DNA of 64,000 nucleotides from an uncultured Opitutales bacterium (GCA_964562015.1 CAZLRH010000002.1:24021-88020); one strand, 5' to 3'. Positions 26,175-59,861 are shown, numbered from the stretch's first letter. Program-made: numbers and translations. The notes: a model not told the origin generated them from the sequence alone.

Positions 26175-26215
26175 TGGCGGTGGGAAAAATAATAAACGGA
26201 ATGGCCCAGTCCCCT

Positions 26216-35697: not shown

Positions 35698-35823
35698 TGA
35701 AGAAACCGGCCATGCCGGAAAAGTTACAATAGATAGTTTAAGGTGAACTGGGCGGAACCCGCCCGGCCCTTGCGCTTTCTTATGGTTATTTTCCGGGTTC
35801 TGGTTAAACTTATCACCCTGCCC

Positions 35824-36900
35824 ATGAAGATACCTTTTTTCTCCCGCCCGGCCACGAGCCTCGTGACTTTGCTCGCCACCGGCTTGGCCCATGGCCAAGC
35901 CACCCCCGCCCCGTTGTATCCGCCGCCGGCCGCGACCTCGTCGGTGCCCGCCTCCACGGTCCCGTCGGCCCCTGCGCCCGCCCCGGTCGCTCCGGCCCCG
36001 GCCACCGTTATTCCCACGGTGCCCCCGGCCACAGCCGCCGCCACTGCGACGGCGGACGCCGCCGCGCCGACCCCGCAACGTGATACCCTCGGTGTGAGCG
36101 ACATCAAAGTACTCCCGGCCTTGCTCACGGAAGCCCGGCGCAACGGCACCTCCAGCGCCCTCGAGCGCGTCGCCCAGTCGCTGGACAGCCAGCTCATCGC
36201 CGCCCTCGGCTCCACCCGCAAATTCCAATTGGTGGGCCGCAGCGACCTCGACGTCATTCTCAAGGAGCAATCGCTCTCGAATTCCGGCACGGTGGACGAC
36301 GCCTCCGCCGTGAAGATGTTCAAGCTCGCGGGCGCGACCTACATCCTGACCGTCAGCATCGACAATTTCCAGGACCGCACTGAAACCGCGACCTTCTCCG
36401 CCCTCGGCGAGCAGGCCCAGCGCCGGAAGGTCACACTTTCCTGCATTGCCAAAATCTATTCGGCACAATCCGGCAAGCTCCTCGAATCCGCCAACATCCA
36501 GCTCGACCAGACGGACGCCCGCAACGACCCGAATTACATCGCTTCCGCCGGCTCCAATTGGGCCGACAAACTGCTCGTGGATCTCGCGCGCACGGCCTCG
36601 GAAAAAATCGCCCAGAGCGTCACCGACTCGCTTTATCCCGCCAAGGTGGTCGCCAAAACGGACAAGCAAATCACCCTCAATCGCGGCGAGGGCACCGGCA
36701 TCGCCGTCGGCCAGACGTGGATCATTTATAACGTGGGCAAGGAGCTCATCGATCCCGACACCGGCCTGAGCCTCGGCCGCGAGGAAGTCGCCATCGGCAA
36801 GGCCAAAATCACCTCCGTCACGCCGCGTACCGCCCTCGCAGAATTGACTGAGGACCGCGGCGTCGCGCCCTTGAACACCGCCCGGCAAACGGATCAGTAA
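35824..36900 (+). CDS. periplasmic CsgG/LPP20-like (TolB-N-like fold) protein with Pro/Ala-rich N-terminal linker
   Basis: Signal peptide MKIPFFSRPATSLVTLLATGLAHG. Core KFQLVGRSDLDVILKEQSLSNSGTVDDASAVKMFKLAGATYILTVSIDNF resembles the CsgG/LPP20/LpoB-N family pattern. Family assignment tentative. Confidence 0.45.
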   Translation: MKIPFFSRPATSLVTLLATGLAHGQATPAPLYPPPAATSSVPASTVPSAPAPAPVAPAPATVIPTVPPATAAATATADAAAPTPQRDTLGVSDIKVLPALLTEARRNGTSSALERVAQSLDSQLIAALGSTRKFQLVGRSDLDVILKEQSLSNSGTVDDASAVKMFKLAGATYILTVSIDNFQDRTETATFSALGEQAQRRKVTLSCIAKIYSAQSGKLLESANIQLDQTDARNDPNYIASAGSNWADKLLVDLARTASEKIAQSVTDSLYPAKVVAKTDKQITLNRGEGTGIAVGQTWIIYNVGKELIDPDTGLSLGREEVAIGKAKITSVTPRTALAELTEDRGVAPLNTARQTDQ

Positions 36901-36953
36901 ATTCCCCGCCTGACCGCTCGGGACTCTTTCGGAAATCTTCCGCGCCCAGCCCG

Positions 36954-38408
36954 ATGAAACCTTTTAGCGTGCTCGGCGGAGCGATTTTGGCCCTCCTGTT
37001 GGGCGGCTGCGCGACGTATAAAGATGACACGGAAGGGCTGCGCACCGCGTGGGCCGCCGGCAATGTGAAACAGGCCGCGCAAATCGCGGGCTCAAACGCC
37101 GAGCAAAAGAAGGGCTCCGGCACGGCGCTGCTGTGGTATCTGGAGGACGGCGCAACCACGCGGGCCGACGCCCAATTCGACCGCAGTCTGGCCGCCTTCA
37201 ACCAGGCGGACGCGAAAATCGATTATTGGGACAGCCAGCCCGCGGTGTCCGTCTCCGCCGAGGCCGCGGCCATCATGGTCAACCAGACGGTGCTTTCCTA
37301 CCGCGGCACCTCCTATGATAAAATCATGGAGAGTACTTATCAAGCGCTGAACTATCTCCAGTTGGGCCAGCCCGACCAGGCCCGCGTCGAGCTGAACCGC
37401 GCCCGTGAGCGCCAGCGCGCCGCGGTGGAGGCCAATGCCGCCCGCATCGCCTCGGCCCAGGAAGCCGCCGCCGCCGCCTCCAACGGCACCTTGAACGCGA
37501 ATTCCGCGGCCGCGAACAAGACCGCACCCGAGGATTCTTATGACGTGCAGCGCGCGCAAAATGATCCCGGATTCAAGGCCAATCTCCAAAACGCCTACGG
37601 CTCGCTCGACGGGCTCCACTACTACACGCCGTACGTGAATCCCTTCAGCGTTTTTCTCGAGGGGATTTACTTTCTGGCGCGCGGCGACACCGGCGCGGAC
37701 CTCGAACGCGGGCGCGTGGCGCTCAACCAGGTGCGCAGCCTGACCGGTGACAATCCCTTCATCAACGCCGATTGCGACCTTGCGGACAAGATGGCGAACG
37801 GCGCGCCCCTGCCGGAGACTACCTATGTCATCTATGAAACGGGCATGGCGCCGATTCGCGATGAAGTGCGGATCGACATTCCGCTTTTCATTGTTAGCCG
37901 GTCGGTGCCGTACGTCGGGGTGGCGTTTCCGCAACTGCGGTTCAACAGCCAGTACAACCCCGGCCTGATCGTGCAGGCGGGCAAGGGTGAACCTCTGCGC
38001 ACCGTGTTGCTGTGCGACATGGATCTCGTGATTGCCCAGGAATTTCGGAACGAATTGCCGGTCATCATTGTCAAAACCCTTATCTCCGCCGGTGCCAAGG
38101 CGGCGGCCCAGTACGGCCTCTACGCCGCCACCAAGGGCAACAACGCCCTTTCCCTGTTCGCGGAAATCGGCGGCACCCTCTACCAATTCGCCACCAACCG
38201 CGCCGACTTGCGCACGTGGGTCACCCTGCCCAAGCAGTTCGTGTATTGCCGCCTGCCCACCCCCGCCGACCGGAAACTCCAACTCACCAACCAAGGGACC
38301 GGCCTGACGCAGACTGTTGACCTCCCGCCGGGCGTCGTTACCATTGTGTACGTCAAAAGCAACACCTTCGCTGACCGCCTCCTCGTCAATACCTTTACCC
38401 TTCGTTGA
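36954..38408 (+). CDS. hypothetical lipoprotein (484 aa)
   Basis: Lipobox ALLLGGC. No confidently recognised domain. Tightly linked (4-bp gap) to the YcfL-like gene. Confidence 0.5.
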   Translation: MKPFSVLGGAILALLLGGCATYKDDTEGLRTAWAAGNVKQAAQIAGSNAEQKKGSGTALLWYLEDGATTRADAQFDRSLAAFNQADAKIDYWDSQPAVSVSAEAAAIMVNQTVLSYRGTSYDKIMESTYQALNYLQLGQPDQARVELNRARERQRAAVEANAARIASAQEAAAAASNGTLNANSAAANKTAPEDSYDVQRAQNDPGFKANLQNAYGSLDGLHYYTPYVNPFSVFLEGIYFLARGDTGADLERGRVALNQVRSLTGDNPFINADCDLADKMANGAPLPETTYVIYETGMAPIRDEVRIDIPLFIVSRSVPYVGVAFPQLRFNSQYNPGLIVQAGKGEPLRTVLLCDMDLVIAQEFRNELPVIIVKTLISAGAKAAAQYGLYAATKGNNALSLFAEIGGTLYQFATNRADLRTWVTLPKQFVYCRLPTPADRKLQLTNQGTGLTQTVDLPPGVVTIVYVKSNTFADRLLVNTFTLR

Positions 38409-38411
38409 CCC

Positions 38412-38840
38412 ATGAAAAAATCCGCCCTTCGCATTTTCGCCGCCGCCACGCTGGGCCTTGCGTTGCTCGCCGGTTGCTCGACCGTCAATACCGTCGAGCC
38501 CGCCAATCCGCAGGCCCGCCCCAACCGCGTGGACGACAAGCGCATCATCACCGACTCCGACCTCAACGACATCGCCTACGTGCAAAATGTTTATGAGACC
38601 ACCGTCAGCGGCAATCTCAAGCGCGTGCAGGTGACGATCCGGAATCTCACTTCCACGGTAAAAAACGTGAATTACAAATTCACCTGGTTTGACGGCCAGG
38701 GCATCGTGGTGGATTCGCCGATGAGCCTTTACCAGTCCGTGTCCATCGAAGGCGGGGCTTCCTTGCCGCTGACCTCGACCGCGCCGAATCCAAAGGCCGT
38801 GGACTTCAAACTCGAACTGCTCGGCTCCGTCCGCCGCTAA
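38412..38840 (+). CDS. YcfL-like (DUF1425) lipoprotein
   Basis: Lipobox LLAGC. Size (142 aa) and the pattern NLKRVQVTIRNLTSTVKNVNYKFTWFDGQGIVV...SIEGGASLPL fit the YcfL family. Confidence 0.5.
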   Translation: MKKSALRIFAAATLGLALLAGCSTVNTVEPANPQARPNRVDDKRIITDSDLNDIAYVQNVYETTVSGNLKRVQVTIRNLTSTVKNVNYKFTWFDGQGIVVDSPMSLYQSVSIEGGASLPLTSTAPNPKAVDFKLELLGSVRR

Positions 38841-38855
38841 CTTTCTCCCTTCTCC

Positions 38856-39458
38856 ATGAAAACCTCCCCTCTTTTTCTCGCTGTACTCCCTGCGCTGCTG
38901 CTGGCCGGTTGCGGCTCGCCGCCGAACTCGGCCCAATACGTGGACCCGAACGGCCCGCGCACCATCGTGTCGCTGAACCAAATCGACATCCAGGATTTCA
39001 ACGGCGCCGCCGCGACGATGACCCAGTCGCTCCTCAACAGCGGGGTGCTCGAAAAAGCGCCGACGCAACCGGCGGTGATGGCCATTTCGCGCATCACCAA
39101 CGACACCGGCCAGCAATTTGACACGGACTACCTGATCAAGAACATCCGCGTGGCGCTGAACAACAGCGGCAAAGTCGTCACCACCACGACCACCGGCCTC
39201 GGCGGCAAGGCGGAAGACCCGCTGGCCCGCGACGCCGGCAACATGCAGGCGTTCATGCAGGGCCAGCCGGCGCCCTCACGCATTCCCTATTACAGTTTGT
39301 CAGGCAAGATTCTCGCCAGTACCGCCAAGGCCGACGACATCTACCAACGCACGTACACATTTCAACTGAGCCTGACGGAAATTGCCTCGGGCAATGCCGT
39401 TTGGGAGGATCAAAAGCAAATCACCAAGCAAGGCAAACAGCCGGCGGTCGGGTTTTGA
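38856..39458 (+). CDS. LpoB-like lipoprotein (penicillin-binding-protein activator LpoB family, COG3417-like)
   Basis: Lipobox LLAGCGS. PTQPAVMAISRITNDTGQQFDTDYLIKNIRVALNNSGKVVTTT resembles the LpoB globular domain. Adjacent to a ycfL-like gene as in E. coli ycfL-lpoB. Confidence 0.5.
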   Translation: MKTSPLFLAVLPALLLAGCGSPPNSAQYVDPNGPRTIVSLNQIDIQDFNGAAATMTQSLLNSGVLEKAPTQPAVMAISRITNDTGQQFDTDYLIKNIRVALNNSGKVVTTTTTGLGGKAEDPLARDAGNMQAFMQGQPAPSRIPYYSLSGKILASTAKADDIYQRTYTFQLSLTEIASGNAVWEDQKQITKQGKQPAVGF

Positions 39459-40225: not shown

Positions 40226-40747
40226 TTATCGTTTTGGCGCTGTCCATAAAATCACATCCGGACTCTCTGCGGCGGAGGCCAGCCGGGCGCGGGCCTCGGC
40301 CCAAATCGGGCGCTGAAAACGCCGCGACCGTTCGATCAATTCCCGCAGAGGCACGGTGACAAAGGCGCGATCCCACATGCGCGGGTGCGGCAGGATCAAC
40401 TCTGGACCATTGCTAGTCACGCCTTCGTATAACAGCAAATCAAGATCCAGTGTGCGCGGGCCCCAGCGGATTTCCTCTGCGCGCCGACGGCCTGCCGCGC
40501 GTTCGAGTTGATGCAGCACCGGCAAAAGCTCGGCCGGCTCCAGCGTTGTTTCCAGTCCCGCCACCAAGTTGAGAAACAACGGCTGCTCCGTGAGGCCCAC
40601 GGGAGCGGTTTCATAAATCGCCGAGGGTTCGACTAAGGTTATTCCGGGAGTCTTCCGCAAAGCGTCCAGTGCGGCGCGCAGCGTGGCCCCGCGGTCGCCG
40701 AGATTGGCGCCGAGGCCCACAAAGGCTTGTCGCGCGGCGGCGGGCAT
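40226..40747 (-). CDS. folK: 2-amino-4-hydroxy-6-hydroxymethyldihydropteridine diphosphokinase (HPPK)
   Basis: AFVGLGANLGDR, EPSAIYETAPVG, RWGPRTLDLDLLLY, PHPRMWDRAFV. Confidence 0.9.
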   Translation of the reverse strand: MPAAARQAFVGLGANLGDRGATLRAALDALRKTPGITLVEPSAIYETAPVGLTEQPLFLNLVAGLETTLEPAELLPVLHQLERAAGRRRAEEIRWGPRTLDLDLLLYEGVTSNGPELILPHPRMWDRAFVTVPLRELIERSRRFQRPIWAEARARLASAAESPDVILWTAPKR

Positions 40748-40750
40748 GGC

Positions 40751-41125
40751 TCAGGCGCCGACGCGCGTGCGCCGAATCTTTGCGCTGAAGCCGGCGAAGG
40801 CAAATTCCACCGGCGGCGCGGGCTTCGTGACTTCCACCTCGACCGCCTGCACCGTCGAAAAGGCCTGGAGCAATTCGGCCGCGATGGCTTCGGCCAGCGA
40901 CTCAGCCAATTGCCGCGACGGGCCCTCCATGACAGCCCGCACGGTTTCAAAAATGGCCCGGTAATCAATCGCCCGCGCGAGGTCGTCCGCGCGGCCAGCC
41001 TCAGCCAGCGGCACTTCCAGCCGCACCGTGACTTCAAAAACCTGGCCGTGAGTTTTTTCCTGCGGAAAAACCCCGTGCCGGGCGAAAAAGCGCAGGCGCG
41101 TGAGCGTGAGAGAATCGGAGGTCAT
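40751..41125 (-). CDS. folB: dihydroneopterin aldolase
   Basis: LRFFARHGVFPQEKTHGQVFEVTVRLEVPL, ...DYRAIFETV. Start MTSDSL overlaps the folP stop (ATGA). Confidence 0.85.
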   Translation of the reverse strand: MTSDSLTLTRLRFFARHGVFPQEKTHGQVFEVTVRLEVPLAEAGRADDLARAIDYRAIFETVRAVMEGPSRQLAESLAEAIAAELLQAFSTVQAVEVEVTKPAPPVEFAFAGFSAKIRRTRVGA

Positions 41126-42048
41126 GGTGTCCAGGCGAGACCGGCGCGGAGCGCGTCGGCCATTTTGACAAAACGGCGCATCGGCGCGACATCGTGCACG
41201 CGCACCATCTGGCAGCCTTGCTGAATGCCCCAAACGAGGGTCGCCCCGGTGGCATCCAGACGGTCCTCCACCGGGGCATCGAGCACGCGGCCGAGCGTGG
41301 ACTTGCGCGACGTGCCGAGCAAGACCGGAAAACCCAGTTCCACCACGCGCGCAAGGTGCCTGAGTACTTCAAGATTTTGCGCCGGTTCCTTGGCAAAACC
41401 AAAACCCGGATCCAGCCACAACTGGTGGTGAGCGATGCCCGCGGAGCGCGCGACCAAAACACTCAGGCGCAAATCATCGAGCACCTCGGGCCAGAAATCC
41501 TTATAATCCCGATCGGGCCGGTTGTGCATAAGAATAAGCGGGCAGCCGAGGTCCGCCACCACCGCCGCCAGAGGAGATTCATCCACGGCCAGTTGGGTGG
41601 AGGCCGTGGGATGATGCAACGACGCAATCAATTCGCGCCGCCGGGCTGCGCTGAAGCCGTGCAGGCCGCCCCACACGTCGTTCACCACGTCGGCTCCCGC
41701 GGCCACGGCAGCCCGGGCGACCTCCGCTTTGTAGGTATCAATGGATAGCGGCGCGGAGGAAAAAGCCTCACGCACCGCCTTAATTGCCGGCAACACGCGC
41801 TCCATTTCCTCGGCGGCGGAAATCGGCGCGGCCTCGGGGCGCGTGGATTCACCACCGAGATCGAGGATATCGGCCCCTGCCACGAGCATGGCGCCTGCCC
41901 GGTCCACAACCGCCTGCAACGAGGGCAATTCCCCGCCGTCGGAAAAAGAATCCGGCGTGAGGTTGAGGACCCCCATCAACAAAGTGCGCCCGCCCGGCGT
42001 CGGCAAGGCGCGGCCATGCGGACTCTGCCAGTACGAGGGAGAAGTCAT
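41122..42048 (-). CDS. folP: dihydropteroate synthase
   Basis: MGVLNLTPDSFSDGG, DILDLGGESTRP, VVNDVWGG, and a pterin-binding TIM barrel throughout. The true start could instead be the internal MGVLN. Confidence 0.9.
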   Translation of the reverse strand: MTSPSYWQSPHGRALPTPGGRTLLMGVLNLTPDSFSDGGELPSLQAVVDRAGAMLVAGADILDLGGESTRPEAAPISAAEEMERVLPAIKAVREAFSSAPLSIDTYKAEVARAAVAAGADVVNDVWGGLHGFSAARRRELIASLHHPTASTQLAVDESPLAAVVADLGCPLILMHNRPDRDYKDFWPEVLDDLRLSVLVARSAGIAHHQLWLDPGFGFAKEPAQNLEVLRHLARVVELGFPVLLGTSRKSTLGRVLDAPVEDRLDATGATLVWGIQQGCQMVRVHDVAPMRRFVKMADALRAGLAWTP

Positions 42049-42122
42049 GCGGAAAAACCGTCGCTATGATTCGCAAACTCCGGCGCACTGGCAAGCTTCA
42101 CTCGCGCTGCCTACGCGCTCGC

Positions 42123-44006
42123 TCATGCCGTGGCCTCGGTCGGCGTCGGGGCTGGCGGCGTCTCAGCCGCGGCTTTGGCCGCCGTTTCCTGGCGCAGGCG
42201 CCGGTAATCGTCGAGCTTGCGTTTGCGCAAGTCGTCCGCCTGGGATTTGACTTCAGCCTCGATGGCGAATTCCTCGCGCACGACTTCCATGTCCTCGATG
42301 TCGGGCGGCACGGTGCCGATGGCTTCCTCGAGGGTGGAAAAACCCGCGCGCACTTTTTTCATGCTGTCCTGGTGCAGGGTGGACATGCCGTTCATCATCG
42401 CGATGCGCTTGATCATGGCCGTCTCGGCCTCCTTGTTGATGGCTTCGACGAGGGCTTCGCTCGTGCCCATCAATTCATGGATGCCCACGCGGCCCTTGTA
42501 GCCGGTGCGGTTGCAGGCCGGGCAGCCCTCCGGGTTCGCGCGGAAAATCTGGCCGCGCCATTGAATCGCCTTGAGCAGAATCTCCGCTTCGCGGCCCACC
42601 GGTTCGAAAGGCTGCTTGCAGGCCTTGCACACGCGCCGCATGAGGCGCTGCGCGCACACACACACAAGGGAGGCCGATACCATGAACGGCTCGACTTCCA
42701 TCTCCGTGAGGCGCGCGACCGTCGAAGGCGCATCATTGGTGTGCAGGGTGGAAAAAAGCATGTGGCCGGTGAGCGCAGCCTCGACCGCGATGCCCGCAGT
42801 TTCCTTGTCGCGAATTTCGCCGACGAGGATGATGTCCGGATCCTGGCGCAAAAAAGCGCGCAGCGCGGTCGCAAAAGTCAGGCCGATCTTGCGGTGCATC
42901 TGCATCTGGCACAGGCCCGGGAGCGTGTATTCAATTGGGTCCTCGGCGGTGCGGATGACCAGGTCCGGCGAATTGATTTCATTCAACGCCGAATAAAGCG
43001 TCATGGACTTGCCGGAGCCGGTCGGGCCGCAGTGCAGCAACATGCCGAACGGCCGCTGGAGCAATTCGCGATAAAGCATCAAATTCTCGGGCTCAAACCC
43101 CAGCGCGGGCAGCGGCAAGGTGGATTTCTGCTTGTCCAGAATACGCATGACGACGCCTTCGCCGTGATTCAACGGGGCCGTGGAGATGCGCAGATCGATG
43201 TCGAGATTCTTGCGCGTGTGCTGCTTGAAAACAATACGGCCGTCCTGCGGCAGGCGCTTTTCCGCAATGTCGAGATTCGCCATGACTTTCAGGCGGGCAA
43301 TGAGCGCGCCGGAGACCTTGGCCGGAATCGTCAACTTTTCCTGGCAATTGCCATCGATGCGGACCCGCACCCGGGTGGATTTCTCGAACGGCTCGATGTG
43401 AATGTCGCTGCCGCCCGAGTAATAGGCGTCCTCGATGATGCGGTTGGCCAGTTGGATGATGGGCGCGGAATCCTCGCTCTCCATGCCATTCTCGATGTCT
43501 TCCTCCGTGGTGGCCTCGTCCATGCCGAGCGCCTCAACGACATCGCCAAAGCCCTCGGAATGGGTCGGCTCCTTTTTCTCGTCCAACAATTCCGCCAGCT
43601 CGGATTCCACCGCAAGCAGGAGGGCCACTTTCTGGCGGGTGAGTTCCTGAATCTTGTGGGTGACCTGGAGATTGAACGGGTTGGCCAGCGCCACGATGAG
43701 AAAGCTGCCGGCCTGACCCACGGGCAGCACTTTATTTTCGCAGCAGAAATCACGATCCAGTTTTTGGAAAGTCAATTCGTCCACCTGGAAATTGCGCGCA
43801 AAAAACGGGCTGAGGCCGAAGGCGCGGCTGCGGGCGATGTGCAGGGCGGGATCCGATATCTTGTACTCCGTCTGCAAAAGTTTGCCGAGCCCCTCGCCGG
43901 ACATGTCGGCCGAGGAATTGATCAAGGCGGTGGCCTGCTCCTCCGTCAATTTGCGGAGGGACTTCAAGTGGTTGACGATGGAGGCTTGGATGCGCGCAAG
44001 TGCCAT
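42123..44006 (-). CDS. GspE/PilB-family secretion ATPase (type II secretion / type IV pilus assembly ATPase-like) with charged C-terminal extension
   Basis: GSPII_E N-domain. Walker [13 protein letters not shown]. Asp box. Walker [13 protein letters not shown]. His box [12 protein letters not shown]. Tetracysteine CKACKQ...[12 protein letters not shown]. An extra acidic/Lys-rich tail of about 60 aa (...[25 protein letters not shown]...PTEATA). Confidence 0.85.
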
Positions 44007-44181
44007 GGGAGACGGCGGAAACCCAGCCCGCCCGAACCCCCAGCATAGCGGGAGAACGGCAAAAAGATAGAGCAGAACTTCGGGTCGACCGCGCTTTGAC
44101 AGATTTTTTATGGCGCGACTAAACTAATCTAAACAACGCTAGAAAAACCTGCCCCCACGACCGGCCGGAAGGGTGGCGGCC

Positions 44182-45516
44182 TCAGGCGCCCGGAATCAAT
44201 TCGGGATAAATCAGCGAAAGGTCGTCGAGGTTGCCGATGCTGCCGAGCAAGGCGGGATCGATTTTGAAATTCTTCAGGAGGGCCACCGGCTCGACACCGG
44301 CCCGGCGCGCGGATTCGGCGATAAATTCCCGTTGCTTGGCAATCAAATAAGATTCCATCCTATCCGGCACCACGCTTTCGTCGGTCGCGAGGAGTTTGGC
44401 GGCGTCGGCGCCGGCCAGCGGCGGCACATGCTCGGTGGCGACCACGCGGCGCGCGACGTCCACCACCTCCAGATAGTTACCGGGCCAGGCGTAACCGAGG
44501 AGCGTCGAAACGGCCTCGGGCGACAATTGCGCGCGCTCGGCGTCGCCTTCGCGGCGGGAAAACAAGTCCAGGTGCAGCTTGAGGTAGGTGGCCAGGTCCG
44601 CCAGGCGCTCGCGCAACGGCGGCAGGACGATGAGGTGGTTCTTCACCACGTCGAACATCTCCGGGCTGCTTTCCGGAAGCATCTGCGGGTAGCGCGTGAT
44701 ATCGAGGAAGAAAACCCAGGAAACCTCGCGGCCGTTGGGCAGGAATTTCGGGTCCGCCGCGAGCAGCTTTTGCACGAGCTCGATTTGGCCGCGCGTGGCC
44801 TCGCCAAAATCCGTGATGGCCACGAGCTTGCTCACCGCGGTCTGGCCCGGCAGTTCGCGAATGGCCTGCAAGACTTCCAGCGATTCAATCTGCGCGATGG
44901 AAAATTGATGAATGGGCAGCCCCGCAAAGCCGTACCAGCCGGACAGTTCGCAAGTGATCAACTCGATTTCTGCGCCGGGCGGCAGGCCCACAAATTGATA
45001 ATTACCCGAACGCGAGGCGTCCCACAATTGCTGGGCAAAATGCTGCGAGCCCTCGGTCGCGTCGGCCAAATGCACCAATTCGGGATAAGTCCGAACCCAG
45101 GCATCTGACGTGCCCTCGGGCTTGGGCTGGGCCGCGGCGCGCTCCTCTTCGGACATGGGCTGCACGAACCGGCGCACGTGGTTGAGGAACGCTTTAATAT
45201 CGAGGGGCTTTTCCAGGACAAGCGTCACATCCATGTTGGCCACTTTGACCAGCTCGGGGGTGTTCATCAGCCCGGACACCATGATGATTGGAAGATTCGG
45301 CAAACGGGCGCGGGCGCGCTCCATGAAATCCGCGCCGTCCATCACCGGCATTTTGTAGTCGGCGATGACGAGATCGAATTCCTCGGCATCGAGCGCCTTC
45401 AAGGCATCGTGGGGCCGGGTCACCATTTCTGTGCGGAAGCCCTCCTGCACGAGCAAGTCGCGCAGCATTTCCGCATAGTTTTCCTCGTCGTCGAGGACTA
45501 GAATTTTACCAGACAT
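44182..45516 (-). CDS. response regulator: receiver domain + degenerate sigma54-activator-like AAA+ domain (predicted ATPase-dead)
   Basis: REC: ILVLDDEENYAEML...DLVIADYKMPVMDG...IIMVSG. Central domain aligns to NtrC-type AAA+ but Walker A is GLPPGAEIE (not GESGTGKE). Walker B is FFLDI (not FLDE). GAFTGA is WYGFAGL. LPPLRERLADL and YAWPGNYLEVVDVARRVV are retained. Confidence 0.65.
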   Translation of the reverse strand: MSGKILVLDDEENYAEMLRDLLVQEGFRTEMVTRPHDALKALDAEEFDLVIADYKMPVMDGADFMERARARLPNLPIIMVSGLMNTPELVKVANMDVTLVLEKPLDIKAFLNHVRRFVQPMSEEERAAAQPKPEGTSDAWVRTYPELVHLADATEGSQHFAQQLWDASRSGNYQFVGLPPGAEIELITCELSGWYGFAGLPIHQFSIAQIESLEVLQAIRELPGQTAVSKLVAITDFGEATRGQIELVQKLLAADPKFLPNGREVSWVFFLDITRYPQMLPESSPEMFDVVKNHLIVLPPLRERLADLATYLKLHLDLFSRREGDAERAQLSPEAVSTLLGYAWPGNYLEVVDVARRVVATEHVPPLAGADAAKLLATDESVVPDRMESYLIAKQREFIAESARRAGVEPVALLKNFKIDPALLGSIGNLDDLSLIYPELIPGA

Positions 45517-45729: not shown

Positions 45730-47076
45730 ATGTTAGGGACTTTCCTGACCCGAATTATTCCAACGGCTGGAGTTTTTTGCCTGCTCGCGCCGGGAGCCGG
45801 CCACGCGGATGAAACGCCGGCACCCCCTTCCTCTGTCTCCGCGACTCGACCTGCGGATTGGGGGCGGCTTGACCCCTGGAAAAAAACGCTGACGGCCGAA
45901 GAGTGGCGCGAGGCGTTGAACCAGCGCTATGCACCTCATGACACCGCCGATGGGTTGATCGATGTGGGTGGTGACGCGCTTTACACCCGCCTCCAAACCA
46001 ACGACTCAATCCACTATTACGCGTTGGTCCTTCGCGACCCGGCGCAGCCGCGCCCCACCGCCCCGCCGGGCGCGCGCTACTGGCGCACGCGGGCCGAGCT
46101 TCCGCCGATTTCAGACGGCCTGCCGCTGGCGGGTTTGCGGATCGCGCTCGATCCCGGCCATTTGGGCGGCCCTTGGGCGGACATGGAAGAGCGTTCGTTT
46201 TCCGTAAAAGGCGAACCCCCGGTCCACGAAGGCGATTTGACACTGCAGGTCGCCCTGTTGCTCAAACCCCGCCTCGAAGCGCTGGGCGCGACAGTGCTGC
46301 TGGTGCGGGACCGCACGGAACCCGTTACCACCGACACGCCCGCCTCGCTCCGGCCCACTGCGACGACCGCGTATCTCGCGCGGTTTACGCCCGACCACCC
46401 CGCCCCGCCGCCCGGCGACGCCGCCCGCGAACACGACATTACCAAATTGGCGGAATTGCTGTTTTACCGCACCAGCGAAATTCTGGCCCGTGCGCGGCGC
46501 GTGAATGACACGCTTCATCCCGACCTCGTGGTATGCCTTCACTTTAACGGCACGGATTTGCCCGATCCGCAGAATCCCACGCTCGTGCCACAGCAGCATT
46601 TTCACGTCATGGTCAACGGCGCGTATGCGCGCACGGAATTGGAAAACGACGACGAGCGCCTCGAGATGCTCGAACGCATCGCCGACGGCGCGGGCGAGGA
46701 AGAACTGGCGGCGGCACGGGAGATGACCGAAGCGGCGGTGCCAATTTTCGACCTGCCTCCCTTCACTTACAATGGCACGAACGCGGTGGCGCTCGGGGCC
46801 CACGGCTACCTATGGGGCCGCAACCTGCTGGCCAATCGTCTCTATCGCTGTCCGGTGGTTTATTTCGAGCCCTACGTGATGAACAGCGCTGAAGGTTATG
46901 CGCGCATTCAGGCCGGTGACTATGCCGGCACCCGCGAGTTCAACGGACACGAGCGGCAGAACATCTTTGCCGAATACGTGGAAGCCGTGACCGCGGGACT
47001 GGTGAATTATTATGGCGGCCGGCCGGTGGCGCCGACCGAACCGGTGCAAAATATTCCCAACGCACGCCCGCGGTAG
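45730..47076 (+). CDS. N-acetylmuramoyl-L-alanine amidase (Amidase_3 family), secreted
   Basis: Signal peptide. RIALDPGHLGG...EGDLTLQVALLLKPRLEALGATVLLVRDRTEP matches the Amidase_3 pattern (DpGHGG...E...l.la..l...L...G..V.ltR). Pro-rich N-terminal region. Confidence 0.65.
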   Translation: MLGTFLTRIIPTAGVFCLLAPGAGHADETPAPPSSVSATRPADWGRLDPWKKTLTAEEWREALNQRYAPHDTADGLIDVGGDALYTRLQTNDSIHYYALVLRDPAQPRPTAPPGARYWRTRAELPPISDGLPLAGLRIALDPGHLGGPWADMEERSFSVKGEPPVHEGDLTLQVALLLKPRLEALGATVLLVRDRTEPVTTDTPASLRPTATTAYLARFTPDHPAPPPGDAAREHDITKLAELLFYRTSEILARARRVNDTLHPDLVVCLHFNGTDLPDPQNPTLVPQQHFHVMVNGAYARTELENDDERLEMLERIADGAGEEELAAAREMTEAAVPIFDLPPFTYNGTNAVALGAHGYLWGRNLLANRLYRCPVVYFEPYVMNSAEGYARIQAGDYAGTREFNGHERQNIFAEYVEAVTAGLVNYYGGRPVAPTEPVQNIPNARPR

Positions 47077-47213
47077 GCCGGAAGCTCGGCCCGCCGGAGT
47101 CCGTTTCCCATAATAACAAAGCGCCCACGGAGGGCCTGCTCCACCAAGCCGCGCCGTTTGCGCCCGCATCGCCGCTTGACTCACGGGTGCAAATTCGGTT
47201 ACCCCATTGCATC

Positions 47214-47657
47214 ATGTTTACACTTTCGCGGTCACGTCTGGCGGGCTCCTTTTTAATGGCGGCGGTCTTGGCCGCCGGCTGCGCCACCCAGGTGGCGGTC
47301 GGCCCGGCCAACAACCAGGTGGCCACTTACCATTGGGGCACGCTCACGGGCCTGATGCAGGGCGACCCCGATTCACTGTTTCGCGCGACCAACCACGCGC
47401 TCGACGATCTGAAATATTTTCGCGTCTACCAGGAAGTCAGCAAGGACAAGAAGGACATTCTCGTCGTCGCGCGCGGAGTGCTCGACCAGAAAGTGACCGT
47501 GCACATCACACCCGCCAAGGACGAGGGCATGAACACCGTGGCCATCTCCGTCGGCGATGGCGACCTGCCCAAATCGCAGGCCCTGTTCTCCGCCATTGAG
47601 CGCAATATCGGCGGCGGCGGCTCCAGTTCCGGCCTGAATTCACCGTCGCGGCCGTAA
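47214..47657 (+). CDS. DUF3568-like lipoprotein (hypothetical)
   Basis: Lipobox AAVLAAGC. Small (147 aa) conserved-looking periplasmic protein ending in a GGGGSSSGL tail. Confidence 0.45.
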   Translation: MFTLSRSRLAGSFLMAAVLAAGCATQVAVGPANNQVATYHWGTLTGLMQGDPDSLFRATNHALDDLKYFRVYQEVSKDKKDILVVARGVLDQKVTVHITPAKDEGMNTVAISVGDGDLPKSQALFSAIERNIGGGGSSSGLNSPSRP

Positions 47658-50740: not shown

Positions 50741-52441
50741 CTAGCGTTTTCGCTTACGCAGCAAAACCAGTCCGCTGGCGCCCAGCGCCATGACCAAGGC
50801 GACCGTGGATGGCTCGGGCGCGGGGGTGTAAGTGAAATTGCCCGGGTTGAGCGTGATTTCGACATACATGTTGTCCAACGCGGAGGAGGAGTTGAGCGGA
50901 TTGTAAAACACATCCGGGTTGAGGCCGCCTTGGATGCGGTCGGAAAAAGCGAAGGTGTAGGCATCGGTTTGCGTGGCAAACGCGCCGGAGTAGGAATTGT
51001 AGAACTCGGGGTTGATCTGAATACTGCTGCCCACCCACTTGGCGATGTCGGTATTATTCCCCTGCAAGGAAAGGAGATAGAAGAACTGACCGGAGGACAG
51101 GTTGCCGATGGTCAAATTGGCCGAGGCGTTGCCCGAGGCAAAGATGGAATTATTAAGGTTGGTCGTGGTGCTTGTGTTCCCCGCATGGCCCAAAACGGTT
51201 TCCCCATTGGTGGCCAGGCCGAAATTGAGATCCGCCATGAGGTCGCCCACCACCCGGTCCATGAGATTGTTGGAATTCACCGTGCTGACCGCGGTGCCAT
51301 TCCAATAGGCGACGTAGCTGGGGTTGGCGCCATAGATGCCGTTGATGTTGTCGAGTTGGGAATCCGTGACGAAAACATCGAAGCTCCCGACACTTCCGCC
51401 CGAGCCACTGATGATGACTCCGGAGCTGCTGCCCGTGATACCCTGGCCGCTGAGCGCAGCTATCTCGGTGCCGCTCAGCCCAGCCGTGAGGTTGGACTTA
51501 AAAGTGGCGTTCATGTTGTAGCTTTGATTTTGCAGAAAAAGATTGCCGGTGTCCGCCGGAAAGGGGGTGGTGCCCTGTCCCGCCTGGGTGCCGGCGTAAC
51601 CGAAAATCGTGCCCGCCAGCCGTTGTCCGCCCGGGGGCGTAAAGCTCGAGATGTTTAGCGAAATATTATTGCTTCTCATCCACGGGATGAGGGCAGTATT
51701 GCCGACGTTGCCGGTCGCGGGCGCGAGCCAGCTGTGATAATCAGCAATCGGAGGGACGCCGACGATGCGGGCCGTGCCGCTCAAATTACCCAGCGTGGCG
51801 CCGCTGGAATTGACCACGGCGTAGTTGGCGGCGATACGGGCATCGAGCGGCGTGACCACGGTACTGGCGGTCAGGAGATTAAAAATGGTCGGACCGGGCG
51901 TGGTGTTGATCTCGTTCGCCTGTCCGGGGAGCGTGACGAGGCTGCCATCGGCGCGCGATTTGATGGCAAAGTCCGCCGGCATGCTGACGAAGTTCACATA
52001 CGAGGTGTCCACGTTGTTTTGCGTGCTCCCCGCATTGATGTAGGTTTCGAAACGCGCGGACACCAAGGGGTCGGTGGACCCCGGAGTGTTGCCGCCAATC
52101 TGCGTGCCCGCCGTGAAATCAATAAAGCTGTTATAGAAAGTTCCGATATTGACCGTGGAAACAATCCCCGTGGGCCCGCCGGCCCCGGCGCCGGAGACTG
52201 TGCCATACAAGTCCGCGAGGCTGTAAGAAGTGGACAGTGCACCAGCACTGCCATTGCCGAGAGTCACGTTGCCAAACACCGTTGCGCCGCCGCCGACAAA
52301 GGTCAGGTACAGGGCATCATCCGGGATGCCGGTGTTGTTGACGATGACCAGTTGGGTCGTGTTGTTTTGAGCAAAAGCGGCCGGACCAAGCAATCCAGCG
52401 CCCAGCGCGAGCGAAACGGACACAAATAAACGCAGCTTCAT
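50741..52441 (-). CDS. PEP-CTERM-anchored secreted protein, Asn/Gly/Thr/Ser-rich (beta-helix-like)
   Basis: Signal peptide MKLRLFVSVSLALGAGLLGPAAFA. C-terminus PAPEPSTVALVMALGASGLVLLRKRKR is a canonical PEP-CTERM sorting motif (PEP, TM helix, basic tail). Confidence 0.8.
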   Translation of the reverse strand: MKLRLFVSVSLALGAGLLGPAAFAQNNTTQLVIVNNTGIPDDALYLTFVGGGATVFGNVTLGNGSAGALSTSYSLADLYGTVSGAGAGGPTGIVSTVNIGTFYNSFIDFTAGTQIGGNTPGSTDPLVSARFETYINAGSTQNNVDTSYVNFVSMPADFAIKSRADGSLVTLPGQANEINTTPGPTIFNLLTASTVVTPLDARIAANYAVVNSSGATLGNLSGTARIVGVPPIADYHSWLAPATGNVGNTALIPWMRSNNISLNISSFTPPGGQRLAGTIFGYAGTQAGQGTTPFPADTGNLFLQNQSYNMNATFKSNLTAGLSGTEIAALSGQGITGSSSGVIISGSGGSVGSFDVFVTDSQLDNINGIYGANPSYVAYWNGTAVSTVNSNNLMDRVVGDLMADLNFGLATNGETVLGHAGNTSTTTNLNNSIFASGNASANLTIGNLSSGQFFYLLSLQGNNTDIAKWVGSSIQINPEFYNSYSGAFATQTDAYTFAFSDRIQGGLNPDVFYNPLNSSSALDNMYVEITLNPGNFTYTPAPEPSTVALVMALGASGLVLLRKRKR

Positions 52442-52641
52442 AGTGGCAATGTGGGTAGCTAATTCGACTAAATGGGTCAACGCGCAAAACATGGCTCAAA
52501 GCAACCCTTTGTCATACTCGTCGCCAGGCCCGACCTGCTGGATTTCGATTGGATGATGTACGGCATCGCTTAGTTTGACTCGACGACGCAGAGCTTGCGG
52601 CGGTAACAATCTAGTCCCGCTCCTTAATTCTATTTTACTTC

Positions 52642-53777: not shown

Positions 53778-53872
53778 ACCCAGTATTATTTTCCACCCGG
53801 ACTCCCGGGGGTCGGTTGAGAGTCAGATTTGACGAACCGACAGTTATGGGTAGATGTAGTCCCACACCATTC

Positions 53873-55090
53873 ATGAACGCTCGTGCGCAAATTCTGCCGC
53901 TCCGTGCGGTTACTGCGGCCTGGACCCTCGCCGGGCTGGCCTTGCTGGCTGGCTGCGGAAAGTCCAATCAGGCGGCCCCCGCCGGCATGCCGCCCTCGCT
54001 GGTGACGGCCGCCACGGCCACCGCCCAGGATGTGCCCAAATACCTGGACACCATCGGCCAGACCACGGCGTACGAGGCGGTCAATATCGTTTCCCAAGTG
54101 GAGGGCCAGATCATCGAAATGCCCTTCCAGCAAGGCTCCCTGGTGAAAAAAGGCGACGTGCTGGCCGTGATTTTCCAGCCGCCGTTTGTCGCCGCCGTGG
54201 AGCGGTCCTCCGGGGTGGTCGCCTCTGACGAGGCCAACCTCGCCATCGCCAAGTTGCAGGTGGAACGCAGCCAACCGCTGACGGCCGACAACCTCGTTTC
54301 GAAACAGCAGTACGACACCTGGCAGTCGCAGGTCAAAGCCCTCGAGGGCCAGTTGGCCGTGGACAAGGCCAACCTCGACCTCGCGAACATCAATCTCGGC
54401 TACTCCACCATTCGCGCGCCGGTCGACGGCATGGTGGGCGTGTACAAGATCAACATCGGCAATGTCGTCAAAATCAACGATGCGCCAATCACCACCATCC
54501 AGCGCATGGACCCGATTTACGCGGACTTCGTGGTGTCGGTGACGGATTTTCCCGCGATGAAAAAATATTTCGCCGACAACGGTGGAAAACTCGGCGTGCA
54601 CGTCGAAAGCCTCTCGGACGCCACGCAGGCCAAGGACGGTAATTTGACGATTCTCGGCAACGCCATCTCCGCCTCCACGGGCACGGTCTCGGTGCGCTGC
54701 ACGATGCCGAATGACGATTTGCTCTTCTGGCCCAACGAACCGGTGCACGCCCGCATTTTGCTGACGACCCTCAAGGACGCCGTGCTGATTCCCAAGGAAG
54801 CGGTGCAGTTGAACCAGCAGGGCCGCTTCGTGTTTGCCATCAAACCGCCCGCCAAAGCCGGGGACCCGGAAACCGTCGAACAGCGCCCGGTGGAAATTGG
54901 CCAGCCGCAGGAAGGCGGCCTGATTGTCGTCAACTCGGGCGTCAAGGTTGGCGAAAAAGTCGTCGTGCGCAACCCGCTCTTTTTGCAGGACGGCGGCCCG
55001 GTCATGGTGGCGGAATTGGACGGCAAATCCCTCCTGCCGCCGCCCGATGCCGGCCGCCGCGGCGGCCCGCCGCCCGCGGACAAGAAGTAA
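53873..55090 (+). CDS. efflux RND transporter periplasmic adaptor subunit (MFP) 1
   Basis: Lipobox LAGC. IGQTTAYEAVNIVSQVEGQIIEMPFQQGSLVKKGDVLAVI (lipoyl/beta-barrel MFP core). About 70% identical over the core to the 58591..59814 product. Confidence 0.9.
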   Translation: MNARAQILPLRAVTAAWTLAGLALLAGCGKSNQAAPAGMPPSLVTAATATAQDVPKYLDTIGQTTAYEAVNIVSQVEGQIIEMPFQQGSLVKKGDVLAVIFQPPFVAAVERSSGVVASDEANLAIAKLQVERSQPLTADNLVSKQQYDTWQSQVKALEGQLAVDKANLDLANINLGYSTIRAPVDGMVGVYKINIGNVVKINDAPITTIQRMDPIYADFVVSVTDFPAMKKYFADNGGKLGVHVESLSDATQAKDGNLTILGNAISASTGTVSVRCTMPNDDLLFWPNEPVHARILLTTLKDAVLIPKEAVQLNQQGRFVFAIKPPAKAGDPETVEQRPVEIGQPQEGGLIVVNSGVKVGEKVVVRNPLFLQDGGPVMVAELDGKSLLPPPDAGRRGGPPPADKK

Positions 55091-55165
55091 ACCGCCCGTC
55101 GCTGCCACCGACGGTGGCAATCCCTCCCGCCTTTTCACCCTCTCCTTGCCGCGCCTGCACCGCCG

Positions 55166-58100
55166 ATGAACAGTATTTCCGACCCGTTTATCAAGCGCCC
55201 GGTGATGACCATGCTGGTGTACCTCGGGGTGCTGGCCTTTGGCGCGTACGCATTTATATTACTCCCGGTCAGCGACCTGCCGACCGTGGACTACCCGGTC
55301 ATCCAAGTCACCGCCTCCTATCCCGGCGCGAGCCCGGACACCGTGGCCGCGAATGTGGCCTCGCCGCTCGAGCAGCAGTTCCTGAAAGTGCCGGGCATTG
55401 AAATCGTCACCTCATCGAGTTCGCAGGGCAATGCGCAGCTCGTCCTGCAATTCCACCTCGACAAATCCATCGACGCGGCGGCGAGCGACGTGCAGGCGGC
55501 CATCAACCAGGCGCAGGGCAACCTGCCGGCGGATCTCCCCTCCCCGCCCACGTTCCGCAAAACCAATCCGAACGAGCAGCCGATGATGTATATCGGCGCC
55601 ATCTCGTATTCGATGACGGCGACGCAGCTTTATGATTTCGCCTACACGGAACTGGTGCAGCGGATGCAAGTGGTGCCGGGCGTCTCGAACGTGCAGGTGT
55701 ACGGCTCACCCCGCGCGGTGCGCGTGCAGGTGGACCCCGAGAAACTTTATTCACTCGGCCTGAGTTTCAACGACGTGAACCAGGCGGTGCAGCAAGGCAC
55801 CAATCTGGTCGGCGCGGGGCAATTGAAGAGCAACACCTACCAATTCACGCTCCAGCCGAGCACCCAGTTGGAAATGGCGGACGACTACGCCAAGCTCATC
55901 ATCGCCTACAAGGACGGCGCCCCGATTTACCTGCGCGATGTGGCCAGCGTCATCGATACGACGCAGTTTGAGGACTTGAAGATGGACTTCTGGTCCAAGC
56001 GCATTCCCAAACCCGGCGCGGTCGGCATCGTGCTGGCCGTGACCAAGGCGGACGGCGCCAACGCCGTGGAAGTTTCCAAGGGCCTGCGCGCGTTGCTCCC
56101 GCAACTCCAGCAAATCATCCCGAAGTCCATTACGCTGGTGCCCATTTATGATCGGGCGAACAGCATCATCGCCTCCGTGCACGACGTGGAGGAAACGCTC
56201 GGCATCGCGTTTGTGCTGGTGGTGCTGGTCGTGTTCTTCTTCCTCGGGCGCGTGGCGGACACCGTGATCCCCGCGGTGGCGCTGCCGATGTCCCTGCTGA
56301 TGACGTTCATCGTCATGCGGCTGTGCAATTACACCCTGGACAACCTTTCGCTGATGGCGCTGACGCTCTCCATCGGCTTCCTGATTGATGACGCCATCGT
56401 GTTTTTGGAAAACATGGTGCGGCGCATGGAAGCTGGCGAATCCGTGCGCGAAGCCACCTTCAAGGGCGCGAAGGAAATCAGCTTCACCATTTTGGCGATG
56501 ACCCTTTCCCTCGCGGTGGTGTTTCTCCCGCTGGTCGGCATGAGCGGCTTGATCGGGCGGATTTTCCGTGAACTCGGGGTGACGATCGTCGTCGCGGTGC
56601 TGGCCTCCGGCATTGTCTCGCTGACGCTGACGCCTATGATGTGCTCGCGCATCATCCAGGATCGCGGGCGCGACACGAAGACGCTGGTCGAGCGGTTCGC
56701 CCACTGGATTGAGGGCCGGTGCATCGCGTTCTACAGTCCGACGCTGACCTATGCCCTGAAACACTGGTATTTGTCCGTCATTGCGATGGTGCTGTGCTTC
56801 GTAGGCATCGGCGTCTTCGGTTACCTCGTGCCCAAATCGCTGCTGCCCACGGGCGACAGCGGCTTCATTTCCGGCGTGTTCATCGCCGCGCCCAGCACGT
56901 CCCCCACGCTCATGCACGAATATCAGAGCAAGGTGGACGACAGCCTGCGCACCAATCCTTATGTGGACAGCTACGTGTCGGTGTCGGGTTTCGGGCAATT
57001 CCTGAATTCCAACTTTGGCATCGTGTTCGTGCTCCTGGATGAGGCCGGCCAAAAGCTGGCCGACGGCAAGCCCCGTCCGAAGATTGACGCCGTCAACGGC
57101 ATGTTGATGGGCCAGATTTTTCAAATCCCCGGCCTGATTGCGGGCATTCGCCCGATGCCGGTGCTGCAAATCAGCGCCGGCGCCTCGGCTTCGAACTCCG
57201 GCAAGTACCAGTACGTGCTTTACGGCTTGGATAAGGCCAAAGTGCAATTGGCGGGCTTTGCGCTCATGGGGGCCATGTCACAATATCCGAATGTGTTCGG
57301 CCAGGTGACTCCCGATCTTTTCCCGATGAACCCGGTGTTGGATGTGAAGTTGAACCGGCAGCAGGCTTCGCAGTACGGCGTGACGGCGACCAACTTTGCC
57401 CAACTGATGTCCACCGCCTACGCCCAGAACTTCTCCTACCTGATCAAGAGCGACTACCTCCAATACTGGGTGGTGGTCGAGGCCAAGCCCAAGTACCGCG
57501 CCAATGTCGGCGACCTCGACTGGCTCTATTTCAATTCCCTGACAAACCAGAGCACGCTGTACAACACCGGCAGCGCGTTTGACGTGAGCAACAACCTCGT
57601 GCCCTTCCGTGCCATCGGCACCACGTCGCCGAAAATCGGCCCGATCGCGGTCAATCACTTCAACGGCTTTTCGTCCGTGACGCTGTCGTTCGATTTGCAA
57701 CCCGGCATCCCCCTCGGCGTGGCGACGAATGCCATTGAACAAATGGCGGCGTCGATGACGCCCCAATACATTGCCCCCGACATCACGCGCACGTTCCAAG
57801 GCGAAGCGCTGTTGTTCAACGAGGCCCAGGTCAGCCTGCTGCTGGGCATGTTGGTGGCCTTCTTTGTGATGTATATCATCCTGGGAATTTTGTACGAAAG
57901 CTATGTCCACCCCTTCACCGTGCTGCTCTCCATCCCGCTGGCGTTCGCGGGCGGTTTGGGCACGCTGTGGCTGTTTGGGCGGGAACTCTCCCTTTATTCC
58001 GGCATCGGGATGTTCATGCTCGCCGGCATCGTGAAAAAGAACGGCATCATGATGATCGACTTCGCCATCATGCGGCAGGAGGAGGGGCGCAGCCCGAGCG

Positions 58101-59814: not shown

Positions 59815-59861
59815 GCTGCGGATTTTCACCATTTGCACCACCCTCCTGCTTTGTCTTTGCG

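Follow-up and report, generated by a model that had tools for sequence, protein, structure and literature searches.

The 64,000-nucleotide stretch of DNA analyzed in this study (hereafter the window; GCA_964562015.1, CAZLRH010000002.1:24021-88020; ~62% GC) derives from an uncultured Opitutales bacterium (Verrucomicrobiota) and contains an open reading frame (ORF) of 627 amino acids (aa) that encodes an ATPase of the PilB/GspE family (Table 1). This protein is probably a catalytically intact, hexamer-type PilB-like extension ATPase that powers assembly in a dispersed type IV filament machine and has the 444-aa response regulator RR444 as its partner, and not the products of folP, folB, and folK. 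RR444, which is encoded directly upstream on the same strand, is a conserved partner of the ATPase that had been overlooked in the initial annotation of the locus. According to the mechanism we propose, the ATPase would power pilin polymerization, either in a pilus or in an endopilus resembling that of a type II secretion system (T2SS). The parts of the machine would be scattered over the chromosome, as is the case in relatives for a pilin, a prepilin peptidase, and minor pilins. Phosphorylated RR444 would couple a two-component signal to the motor, through contact with the ATPase or through control of its expression. What is new here is a PilB clade that extends throughout the Opitutales and possesses its own C-terminal motif and extension as well as a conserved regulator module, and which we regard as a lineage-specific variant of a known motor.

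The initial annotation had described the ATPase as fully motif-competent, and the sequence bears this out. Pfam assigned residues 177-562 to the T2SSE domain (E = 1.6e-123) and residues 64-143 to the MshEN (T2SSE_N) domain. The Walker A motif, Asp box, Walker B motif, and His box were all located, and in an alignment of 82 orthologs each is either invariant or conserved to at least 90%. C460, C463, C495, and C498 are each at least 90% conserved in the same alignment; they form the predicted Zn-binding module of the extension-type PilB/GspE subfamily. In an AlphaFold2 (AF2) model, the N-terminus consists of helices (residues 2-62) followed by an alpha/beta domain. The cyclic di-GMP (c-di-GMP) motif of MshEN domains, RLGxx(L/V/I)(L/V/I)xxG(L/V/I)(L/V/I)xxxxLxxxLxxQ in two 24-residue copies, is only partly recognizable, and the Pfam match is confined to residues 64-143. 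For the first copy (residues 5-60), the sequence and the ortholog consensus retain the arginine and the hydrophobic positions, with both glycines and the final glutamine replaced. MshE/MshEN c-di-GMP-binding extension ATPases were reportedly described by Wang et al. in 2016. A plus-strand ORF antisense to the ATPase gene (42066-44048) is considered a high-GC artefact, because the GC content by codon position favors the minus-strand frame (GC3 of 0.80).

Among proteins of solved structure, the best relatives of the ATPase are PilB of Geobacter metallireducens (5tsg/5tsh; 448 bits) and Myxococcus xanthus (3jc8; 440 bits) in full-length alignments over residues 18-565, followed by GspE/EpsE chains, which align to the core only. 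The domain order equals that of PilB, with an N-terminal helical region, T2SSE_N, N2, and a catalytic domain that carries the Zn tetracysteine and the ATPase boxes. The NCBIfam PilB model (TIGR02538) scored 565 bits and aligned residues 12-562 to model positions 4-558, and the alignment of the GspE model (TIGR02533; 528 bits) began only at residue 82; both scores lie below the respective curated cut-offs for equivalogs (675.65 and 630.25). We classify the protein as a PilB-architecture member of the PilB/GspE family, which NCBI rules would leave as ‘GspE/PulE family protein’, the label carried by its named orthologs. The homolog search yielded >116 full-length orthologs with 62-83% identity, and all named ones belong to the Opitutales, Puniceicoccaceae, Opitutaceae, Cerasicoccus, or Coraliomargarita. 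Another 38 Opitutales loci at 61-83% identity came from a scan across species genomes, after which identities dropped to 40-50% with cyanobacterial and myxobacterial proteins. When 1.84 billion cluster representatives were searched exhaustively, all members of the clade fell into one 50%-identity cluster (907 bits), and the next representative reached at most 587 bits. The closest full-length relatives outside the clade, one of them from Planctomycetota, are 700-800 aa long and 50-55% identical. These results indicate that the ATPase belongs to a tight, strongly constrained, Opitutales-wide orthologous group.

The unusual charged C-terminal extension of about 60 aa that had been noted initially is indeed present beyond the end of canonical PilB/GspE. 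We assign it to residues 566-627 (62 aa), because the alignments of canonical PilB structures to the ATPase reach only as far as residue 565-569. D, E, K, and R make up 40% of the extension as compared to 25% of the protein body, and its net charge is −5. It appears to be a lineage-specific add-on in three parts, namely a core motif (VPPDxE), a charged helix conserved at family level, and an unconstrained Ala/Pro/Thr-rich end. Within VPPDxE, D569 and E571 are invariant and V566, P567, and P568 at least 90% conserved across the 82 orthologs, on par with the catalytic boxes. The shortest orthologs (570 aa, from Opitutaceae) terminate exactly at ...TVPPDL, and the nearest outgroups frequently end in a related ...EAL(R/S)V(A)(R/P)PDE (xPDE-type ends); therefore, the motif lies in the conserved core of a wider PilB subfamily of the Planctomycetes-Verrucomicrobia-Chlamydiae (PVC) type. 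Residues 573-615 were modeled by AF2 as one long helix (pLDDT 84-96 over residues 581-610), whose pattern EEFxhxxxxKxxxDxxRKxxh is common to the window clade, the Cerasicoccus-like lineages, and locus L015. Orthologs from Coraliomargarita, Puniceicoccaceae, and Opitutaceae have short, differing tails or none. A function as amphipathic docking helix was rejected, as the hydrophobic moment is low (0.12-0.33); for the same reason the tail looks more like a charged single helix, which probably serves protein-protein contact. Residues 616-627 show a mean identity of 0.07-0.11 among orthologs. Conservation of the tail in orthologs thus holds order-wide for VPPDxE and in some families for the charged helix, and fails for the Ala/Pro/Thr-rich end.

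Directly upstream of the ATPase gene and on the same strand, an ortholog of RR444 (RR-B) is encoded in 21 of ~40 loci, which span the window clade, Cerasicoccus, Coraliomargarita, Puniceicoccaceae, and further lineages represented by metagenome-assembled genomes. RR-B orthologs share 70-75% identity within the window clade, compared with 30-40% in other families, and their spacing to the ATPase gene is often only 19-40 nt. Many of these loci also carry a paralogous regulator, RR-A (~25% identical), as well as a short ORF of 155-175 aa (hereafter the small protein), which adjoins the ATPase in ~25 loci. The small protein matched Pfam MshEN at threshold (E = 7e-5 in locus L040) and the PilB equivalog model over positions 4-143 (E = 3e-4), and was collinear with ATPase residues 39-144 in a profile-profile comparison (hhalign, E = 5.6e-4). 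Each match is weak and together they are consistent, and we read this partner as a putative stand-alone copy of the N-terminal domain of PilB. The window clade retains RR-B alone, and the small protein was not found near the ATPase there. In the Opitutaceae group with 570-aa ATPases only the small protein precedes the ATPase, and a few lineages are without either partner. Tails past VPPD tend to accompany adjacent regulators, and the tail-less group is without regulators; very few evolutionary events underlie this co-occurrence, which is no more than suggestive. The idea that a long tail complements a missing N-domain protein was rejected, since L015 has both. Cerasicoccus-like lineages (L009, 7863-8516; L013, L014, L016, and L011) and L058 (6848-7543) conserve, between the genes for the two regulators, a protein of 217-231 aa that has no family match and may also belong to the module. 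On the other side of RR444 in the window, a 448-aa protein (weak Amidase_3 match) and a DUF3568 lipoprotein are encoded divergently (45730-47657, plus strand), a position that is kept in L005, L007, L008, and L012.

RR444 itself matched Pfam Response_reg (E = 3.4e-20) and, weakly, AAA_lid_14. Neither Sigma54_activat (PF00158) nor HTH_8 was detected by Pfam at E values up to 0.01-0.1 in RR444 or in the RR-A and RR-B proteins of Cerasicoccus. An alignment of 71 sequences of the RR444 family showed that D9, D10, D53, S81, and K103 are invariant, that the P-loop lysine is gone (PPGAEIE at this position; family consensus PxGxExEL), and that neither an acidic Walker B pair nor a GAFTGA motif is conserved. 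In a phmmer comparison with solved structures, the receiver and the lid aligned to Aquifex NtrC4 at corresponding positions (295-359 vs 295-358). Because these flanks match the NtrC4 positions, the core between them is taken to be homologous, although it is unrecognizable by sequence. The AlphaFold model of RR444 (71 homologs; pLDDT 87.7) contains three short C-terminal helices, which seem to lack the basic residues typical of Fis-type recognition helices, and its best full-length Foldseek matches were NtrX, NtrC1, NtrC4, LuxO, VpsR, and FleQ. We interpret RR444, whose family appears confined to Opitutales in the homolog search, as a phosphorylatable response regulator on the scaffold of an enhancer-binding protein (EBP); judged from its sequence, the ATPase and sigma-54 contact motifs have been lost and no DNA-binding motif is detectable. 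Members of the family share a terminal peptide, LxLLYPELL (DLSLIYPELIPGA in the window; residues ~430-444, positions 44185-44229), with L435 and L440 at least 90% conserved, and this end could be a short docking motif. No description of such a module, with a motor and dead-AAA+ regulators, was found in the literature searched. PADLOC defense-system models gave no matches with the ATPase and the stand-alone N-domain protein and only generic lid and receiver matches with RR444; membership in an anti-phage defense system was rejected.

Between the RR444 and ATPase genes, an A-rich element (ATAAAAAATCTGTCAAAGCGC; 44085-44115, minus strand) lies 5′ of the ATPase start and is common to loci L005 and L006, with the remaining spacer being unalignable. 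This element may be a promoter or operator. A sigma-54 (-24/-12) promoter upstream of the ATPase or RR444 was rejected, the best matches having 4-5 mismatches of 11.

In agreement with the initial annotation, no PilC, PilM, PilN, PilQ, or GspF was found near the ATPase in a search that covered the window and 10 kb past its right end (~74 kb). Pfam detected no T2SSF, secretin, PilM/N/O, prepilin peptidase, or pilin families among the ~48 window ORFs. Searches of the window by tblastn with PilC, GspF, GspD, PilM, and PilT references from cyanobacterial and deltaproteobacterial loci returned only the ATPase itself, and a scan of the window for prepilin-leader motifs was negative. Likewise, gspL, gspM, gspF, and gspD were not found locally. 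The 10 kb past the right end contain genes for a resistance-nodulation-division (RND) pump, HigB/HTH, an adenylate cyclase, and a transglutaminase, and no pilus genes. The unannotated ORFs at 1771-3292, 24513-27928, 36954-38408, and 50741-52492 were considered as hidden pilus genes and rejected after Pfam, tblastn, and the prepilin scan had all been negative. Across the order, PilC, a secretin, or PilM was encoded within 10 kb of the ATPase in none of 46 Opitutales loci.

Filament genes were found at other sites in relatives. The motif scan revealed prepilin-type leaders in five Opitutales loci. The Opitutales share a small pilin (114-121 aa; 55-72% conservation), which matches the GspG and PilA models equally via its N-terminus; one 598-kb contig carries its gene and an ATPase ortholog 60 kb apart. 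In L061, a bona fide prepilin peptidase is encoded 7 kb from the small pilin, and in Cerasicoccus maritimus (L009, 12993-16732, plus strand) the genes for two N_methyl pilins and a 798-aa PilX_N protein follow the ATPase gene at a distance of 1.1 kb. Thus, filament genes in Opitutales are scattered singly, and being an orphan is the normal state of each, as seen in the relatives and, by extension, presumed for the window genome. Because dispersal is the rule in this order, the local orphan status of the ATPase carries little weight. There is no need to invoke the non-canonical machine considered in the initial annotation, since relatives have genes for a conserved pilin, minor pilins, and a prepilin peptidase at separate locations. 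In published trees of the ATPases, peptidases, and secretins of type IV filaments, Verrucomicrobia are among the taxa listed (PMC6668835); nothing specific on Opitutales pili or T2SS was found in the literature. As side observations, the C. maritimus pilin cluster weakly matches the NCBI ‘Verru_Chthon cassette’ C/D models and is absent from the other Cerasicoccus loci. Genes for a membrane PIN(-TRAM) protein and a ~600-aa PMT_2 (GT-C type) glycosyltransferase repeatedly flank that of the small pilin (L019, 3923-7482; L062, 8822-12280; L063, 8803-12529), which hints at glycosylation of this pilin.

On its other side, the ATPase gene is co-oriented with and directly upstream of folP (41122-42048), folB (40751-41125), and folK (40226-40747), as had been noted initially. 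All are on the minus strand, with 74 nt between the ATPase stop and the folP start, a 4-nt overlap of folP and folB, and a spacing of 3 nt between folB and folK; purN is located on the opposite strand and convergent to the fol genes. The initial annotation had asked whether orthologs keep this linkage, and it proved not to be conserved. According to tblastn with the window neighbors, folP, folB, and folK are downstream of the ATPase in 2 of ~40 related loci, the window contig and L004, and in the latter a DegT-type aminotransferase gene and an opposite-strand gene lie between the ATPase and folP. Loci L005 and L007, whose ATPases are 81-82% identical, have this aminotransferase and arginyl-tRNA synthetase (ArgS) downstream and no fol genes. 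The abutment in the window appears to be a recent local deletion or rearrangement. That the ATPase is functionally tied to folate synthesis, via co-regulation or a shared pathway, deserves next to no credence. The shared strand, the short gap, and the scan, which detected no terminator-like hairpin between the ATPase gene and folP, make transcriptional read-through possible. However, the linkage is missing in relatives that are ~18% diverged and is interrupted in L004, a consensus scan placed a promoter-like site directly upstream of folP, and no biochemical connection is known. A functional linkage was rejected on the basis of synteny, and because close relatives lack it we regard the adjacency as accidental and without functional meaning beyond the possible read-through. 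With the fol adjacency due to chance and orphan status being the local norm, the headline oddities of this locus are mostly explained.

Several observations weigh against our interpretation of the ATPase as motor of a dispersed filament machine under the influence of RR444. The protein falls below both the PilB and the GspE equivalog cut-off. No PilC/GspF platform or secretin was found in 46+4 Opitutales loci, a ~1-Mb sample whose bias to ATPase and pilin neighborhoods makes this lack uninformative. The coupling of regulator and motor is read from synteny only, and both the Opitutaceae with 570-aa ATPases and a few other lineages have no RR-B-type regulator within 10 kb of the ATPase. A gap of 175 nt with a weak terminator-like hairpin separates the RR444 and ATPase genes in the window. 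Furthermore, these bacteria are mostly described as non-motile cocci, for which a motility pilus is not obvious. As for the way in which RR444 would act, we favor control at the protein level, because the EBP output motifs have been lost, the spacing is operon-like in most lineages (19-40 nt), and two regulators and a PilB N-domain protein often occur together. Response regulators that act on PilB have precedents in cyanobacteria and in the Pil-Chp system (10.1101/2021.06.11.447907; PMC11181946; PMC11656802). The lost motifs, the spacing, and the joint occurrence of two regulators and an N-domain protein, together with the missing HTH_8 and basic C-terminal residues, speak against RR444 being only a transcription factor of the atypical EBP kind (like NtrX or VpsR, without sigma-54), which would switch the ATPase gene and never touch the motor. 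NtrX, moreover, keeps its nucleotide site and was crystallized with ATP and ADP, whereas RR444 has lost the P-loop lysine and Walker B. We hold this alternative to be possible, if rather unlikely; it is kept alive by the full-length fold match, which is best to NtrX and includes VpsR and FleQ, by the 175-nt gap with its weak hairpin, which has room for an own promoter, and by the short A-rich element shared by three close relatives, and a regulator lying beside its target gene is the most common explanation for such a neighborhood. A more elaborate form of protein-level control, to which we assign a small chance, is that one or two dead-AAA+ response regulators act as ring-shaped adaptors that dock on the hexameric PilB-like ATPase, possibly via its acidic, clade-specific VPPDMEDLE end and charged helix, with the free N-domain copy competing or cooperating for the platform.

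Instead of a pilus motor, the ATPase could also be the GspE of a T2SS for the export of polysaccharide-degrading enzymes. The GspE score near that of PilB (528 vs 565 bits), the small pilin with a pseudopilin-like conservation of 55-72% and equal matches to GspG and PilA, and the non-motile, polysaccharide-degrading hosts would fit this view. We nevertheless consider it unlikely: the N-terminus follows PilB from residue 12 on, whereas the GspE model sets in only at residue 82, PilB proteins are the best solved relatives, and no GspL, GspM, or GspC was seen. In addition, a PilX_N protein and PilV-like minor pilins adjoin the gene in C. maritimus, and a GT-C-type glycosyltransferase beside the pilin is a pilus-type feature. 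Still more doubtful is the possibility, raised in the initial annotation, that the ATPase, the dead-AAA+ regulators, and the N-domain protein form a non-canonical machine or a signaling ATPase without a PilC-type platform. Every motif of a working pilin-assembly motor is kept, the Zn module included, the pilins, prepilin peptidase, and minor pilins of the same order need such a motor, and dispersal deprives the local orphan status of most of its weight. These arguments have to be set against the 0 of 46 loci with PilC/GspF, a secretin, or PilM within 10 kb, the two missed cut-offs, a sequence conservation that is very high for a PilB, the clade-specific C-terminal motif and partners, and the signaling role reported for M. 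xanthus PilB (PMC5544727).

Compared with characterized systems, the window ATPase differs from PilB of Geobacter and Myxococcus in its score below the TIGR02538 cut-off, the lack of adjacent pilT/pilC, the VPPDxE end with a 57-residue charged extension, and the linkage to pseudo-EBP response regulators. With GspE/EpsE of Vibrio (1p9r, 4ksr) it shares the catalytic core, the Zn module, and the 528-bit score to TIGR02533; in contrast, its N-terminus is PilB-like and not a GspL-binding N1E domain, the score is below the cut-off, and gspF, gspL, gspM, and gspD are not nearby. PilR, the classical pilus-gene regulator, belongs to the NtrC family. RR444 resembles EBPs of this family (PilR and the atypical NtrX, VpsR, and FleQ) in its fold and the domain order of receiver, AAA+, and C-terminal helices, but has no P-loop lysine, Walker B acidic pair, GAFTGA, or detectable HTH_8, and only the lid is recognizable by sequence. 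An N-domain of the Pfam MshEN family is common to the ATPase, the stand-alone 170-aa protein of related loci, and the MshE/MshEN c-di-GMP-binding ATPases (PMC11656802), whereas the two 24-residue motifs of the latter are only partly recognizable in the window ATPase. A phospho-receiver protein coupled to an extension ATPase is also found in the PATAN-REC regulators that bind PilB1 in Synechocystis and in PilG/PilH of Pil-Chp (10.1101/2021.06.11.447907; PMC11181946; PMC11656802); there the output is PATAN or none, whereas it is a dead AAA+ domain in RR444, whose coupling is deduced from gene order. In the PilZ-FimX-PilB complex of Xanthomonas (PMC8389850), small accessory proteins bind PilB to license assembly, and the stand-alone N-domain protein could act analogously; unlike that complex, the Opitutales module is without PilZ, GGDEF, and EAL, and its accessory protein is paralogous to the N-terminus of the motor itself.

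What is known about how pilus and secretion motors are controlled comes largely from Proteobacteria, Myxococcus, and cyanobacteria, and involves c-di-GMP/MshEN, PilZ-FimX, CheY-like, and PATAN proteins. For Verrucomicrobia, which abound as degraders of polysaccharides in oceans, soils, and guts, almost nothing has been reported on such control to our knowledge. A motor accompanied by one or two dead-AAA+ regulators and an N-domain protein provides a testable hypothesis for the gating of filament assembly in these bacteria. If true, gating at the protein level would amount to a kind of two-component gate on a PilB motor that has not been described before, and RR444 would, by its sequence, represent an EBP scaffold reused after the loss of all three classical activities. 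The data also call for caution: genes of one machine are routinely scattered in PVC bacteria, and orphan parts or odd neighbors such as folPBK should not be over-read.

Table 1. Features of the ATPase locus (window positions)
Feature	Position	Strand	Basis
PilB-type (PilB/GspE family) ATPase, 627 aa	42123-44006	-	T2SSE E 1.6e-123; PilB structures over residues 18-565; orthologs 61-83% identical
ATPase N-terminal PilB-like region, residues 1-143: helical MshEN_N-like part and T2SSE_N/MshEN domain	43578-44006	-	Pfam, PilB HMM, AF2
ATPase N2 and catalytic domain (Pfam T2SSE, residues 177-562)	42321-43478	-	Pfam
Walker A GPTGSGKS, ATPase residues 327-334	43005-43028	-	Motif search; invariant in orthologs
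Asp box AEDPIE, ATPase residues 354-359	42930-42947	-	Motif search and ortholog alignment
Walker B, ATPase residues 389-400	42807-42842	-	Motif search and ortholog alignment
His box, ATPase residues 413-423	42738-42770	-	Motif search and ortholog alignment
Tetracysteine (Zn-type) segment, CKAC 460-463 and CPAC 495-498	42513-42629	-	Motif search and ortholog alignment
Order-wide end motif VPPDIE, ATPase residues 566-571	42294-42311	-	Ortholog alignment
Charged helix (predicted), ATPase residues 573-615	42162-42290	-	AF2; ortholog tails
A/P/T/E-rich low-complexity end, ATPase residues 616-627	42126-42161	-	Unconserved
RR444 (RR-B), 444 aa: intact receiver, degenerate NtrC-type AAA+ core, AAA lid, C-terminal helical region	44182-45516	-	Pfam, fold, synteny
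RR444 receiver domain, residues 5-114	45175-45504	-	Pfam; alignment
RR444-ATPase intergenic region	44007-44181	-	Weak terminator-like hairpin 44152-44171, then A-rich element
folP-folB-folK operon, judged outside the system	40226-42048	-	Pfam; synteny

Further observations concern other parts of the window. Four co-oriented lipoprotein-type genes (35743-39458, plus strand), encoding a CsgG-like protein (385 aa), an unannotated protein of 484 aa, a DUF1425 protein (142 aa), and an LpoB-like protein (200 aa), look like a conserved envelope cluster. A MoxR/DUF58-type cluster with additional members lies at 961-10431 (plus strand); this long co-oriented run comprises an RDD/GYF protein, three small unannotated ORFs, DUF4129, DUF4350, a MoxR-type AAA_3 ATPase, DUF58, a membrane protein resembling SpoIIM, and another RDD protein. 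Two overlapping adjacent ORFs of 568 and 570 aa (24513-27928, minus strand) show good codon bias and match no Pfam family at E values up to 0.1. For the 583-aa protein encoded at 50741-52492 (minus strand), a weak PEP-CTERM motif at the extreme end (E = 0.023) was the sole match, and the first-position GC of its gene is unusually low for the genome. Finally, two tandem RND efflux pairs, each of a membrane-fusion protein and an AcrB-type pump, are encoded at 53816-63080 (plus strand) in a region that continues in locus L060, where an outer-membrane factor and a HigB/HTH toxin-antitoxin pair follow beyond the window.

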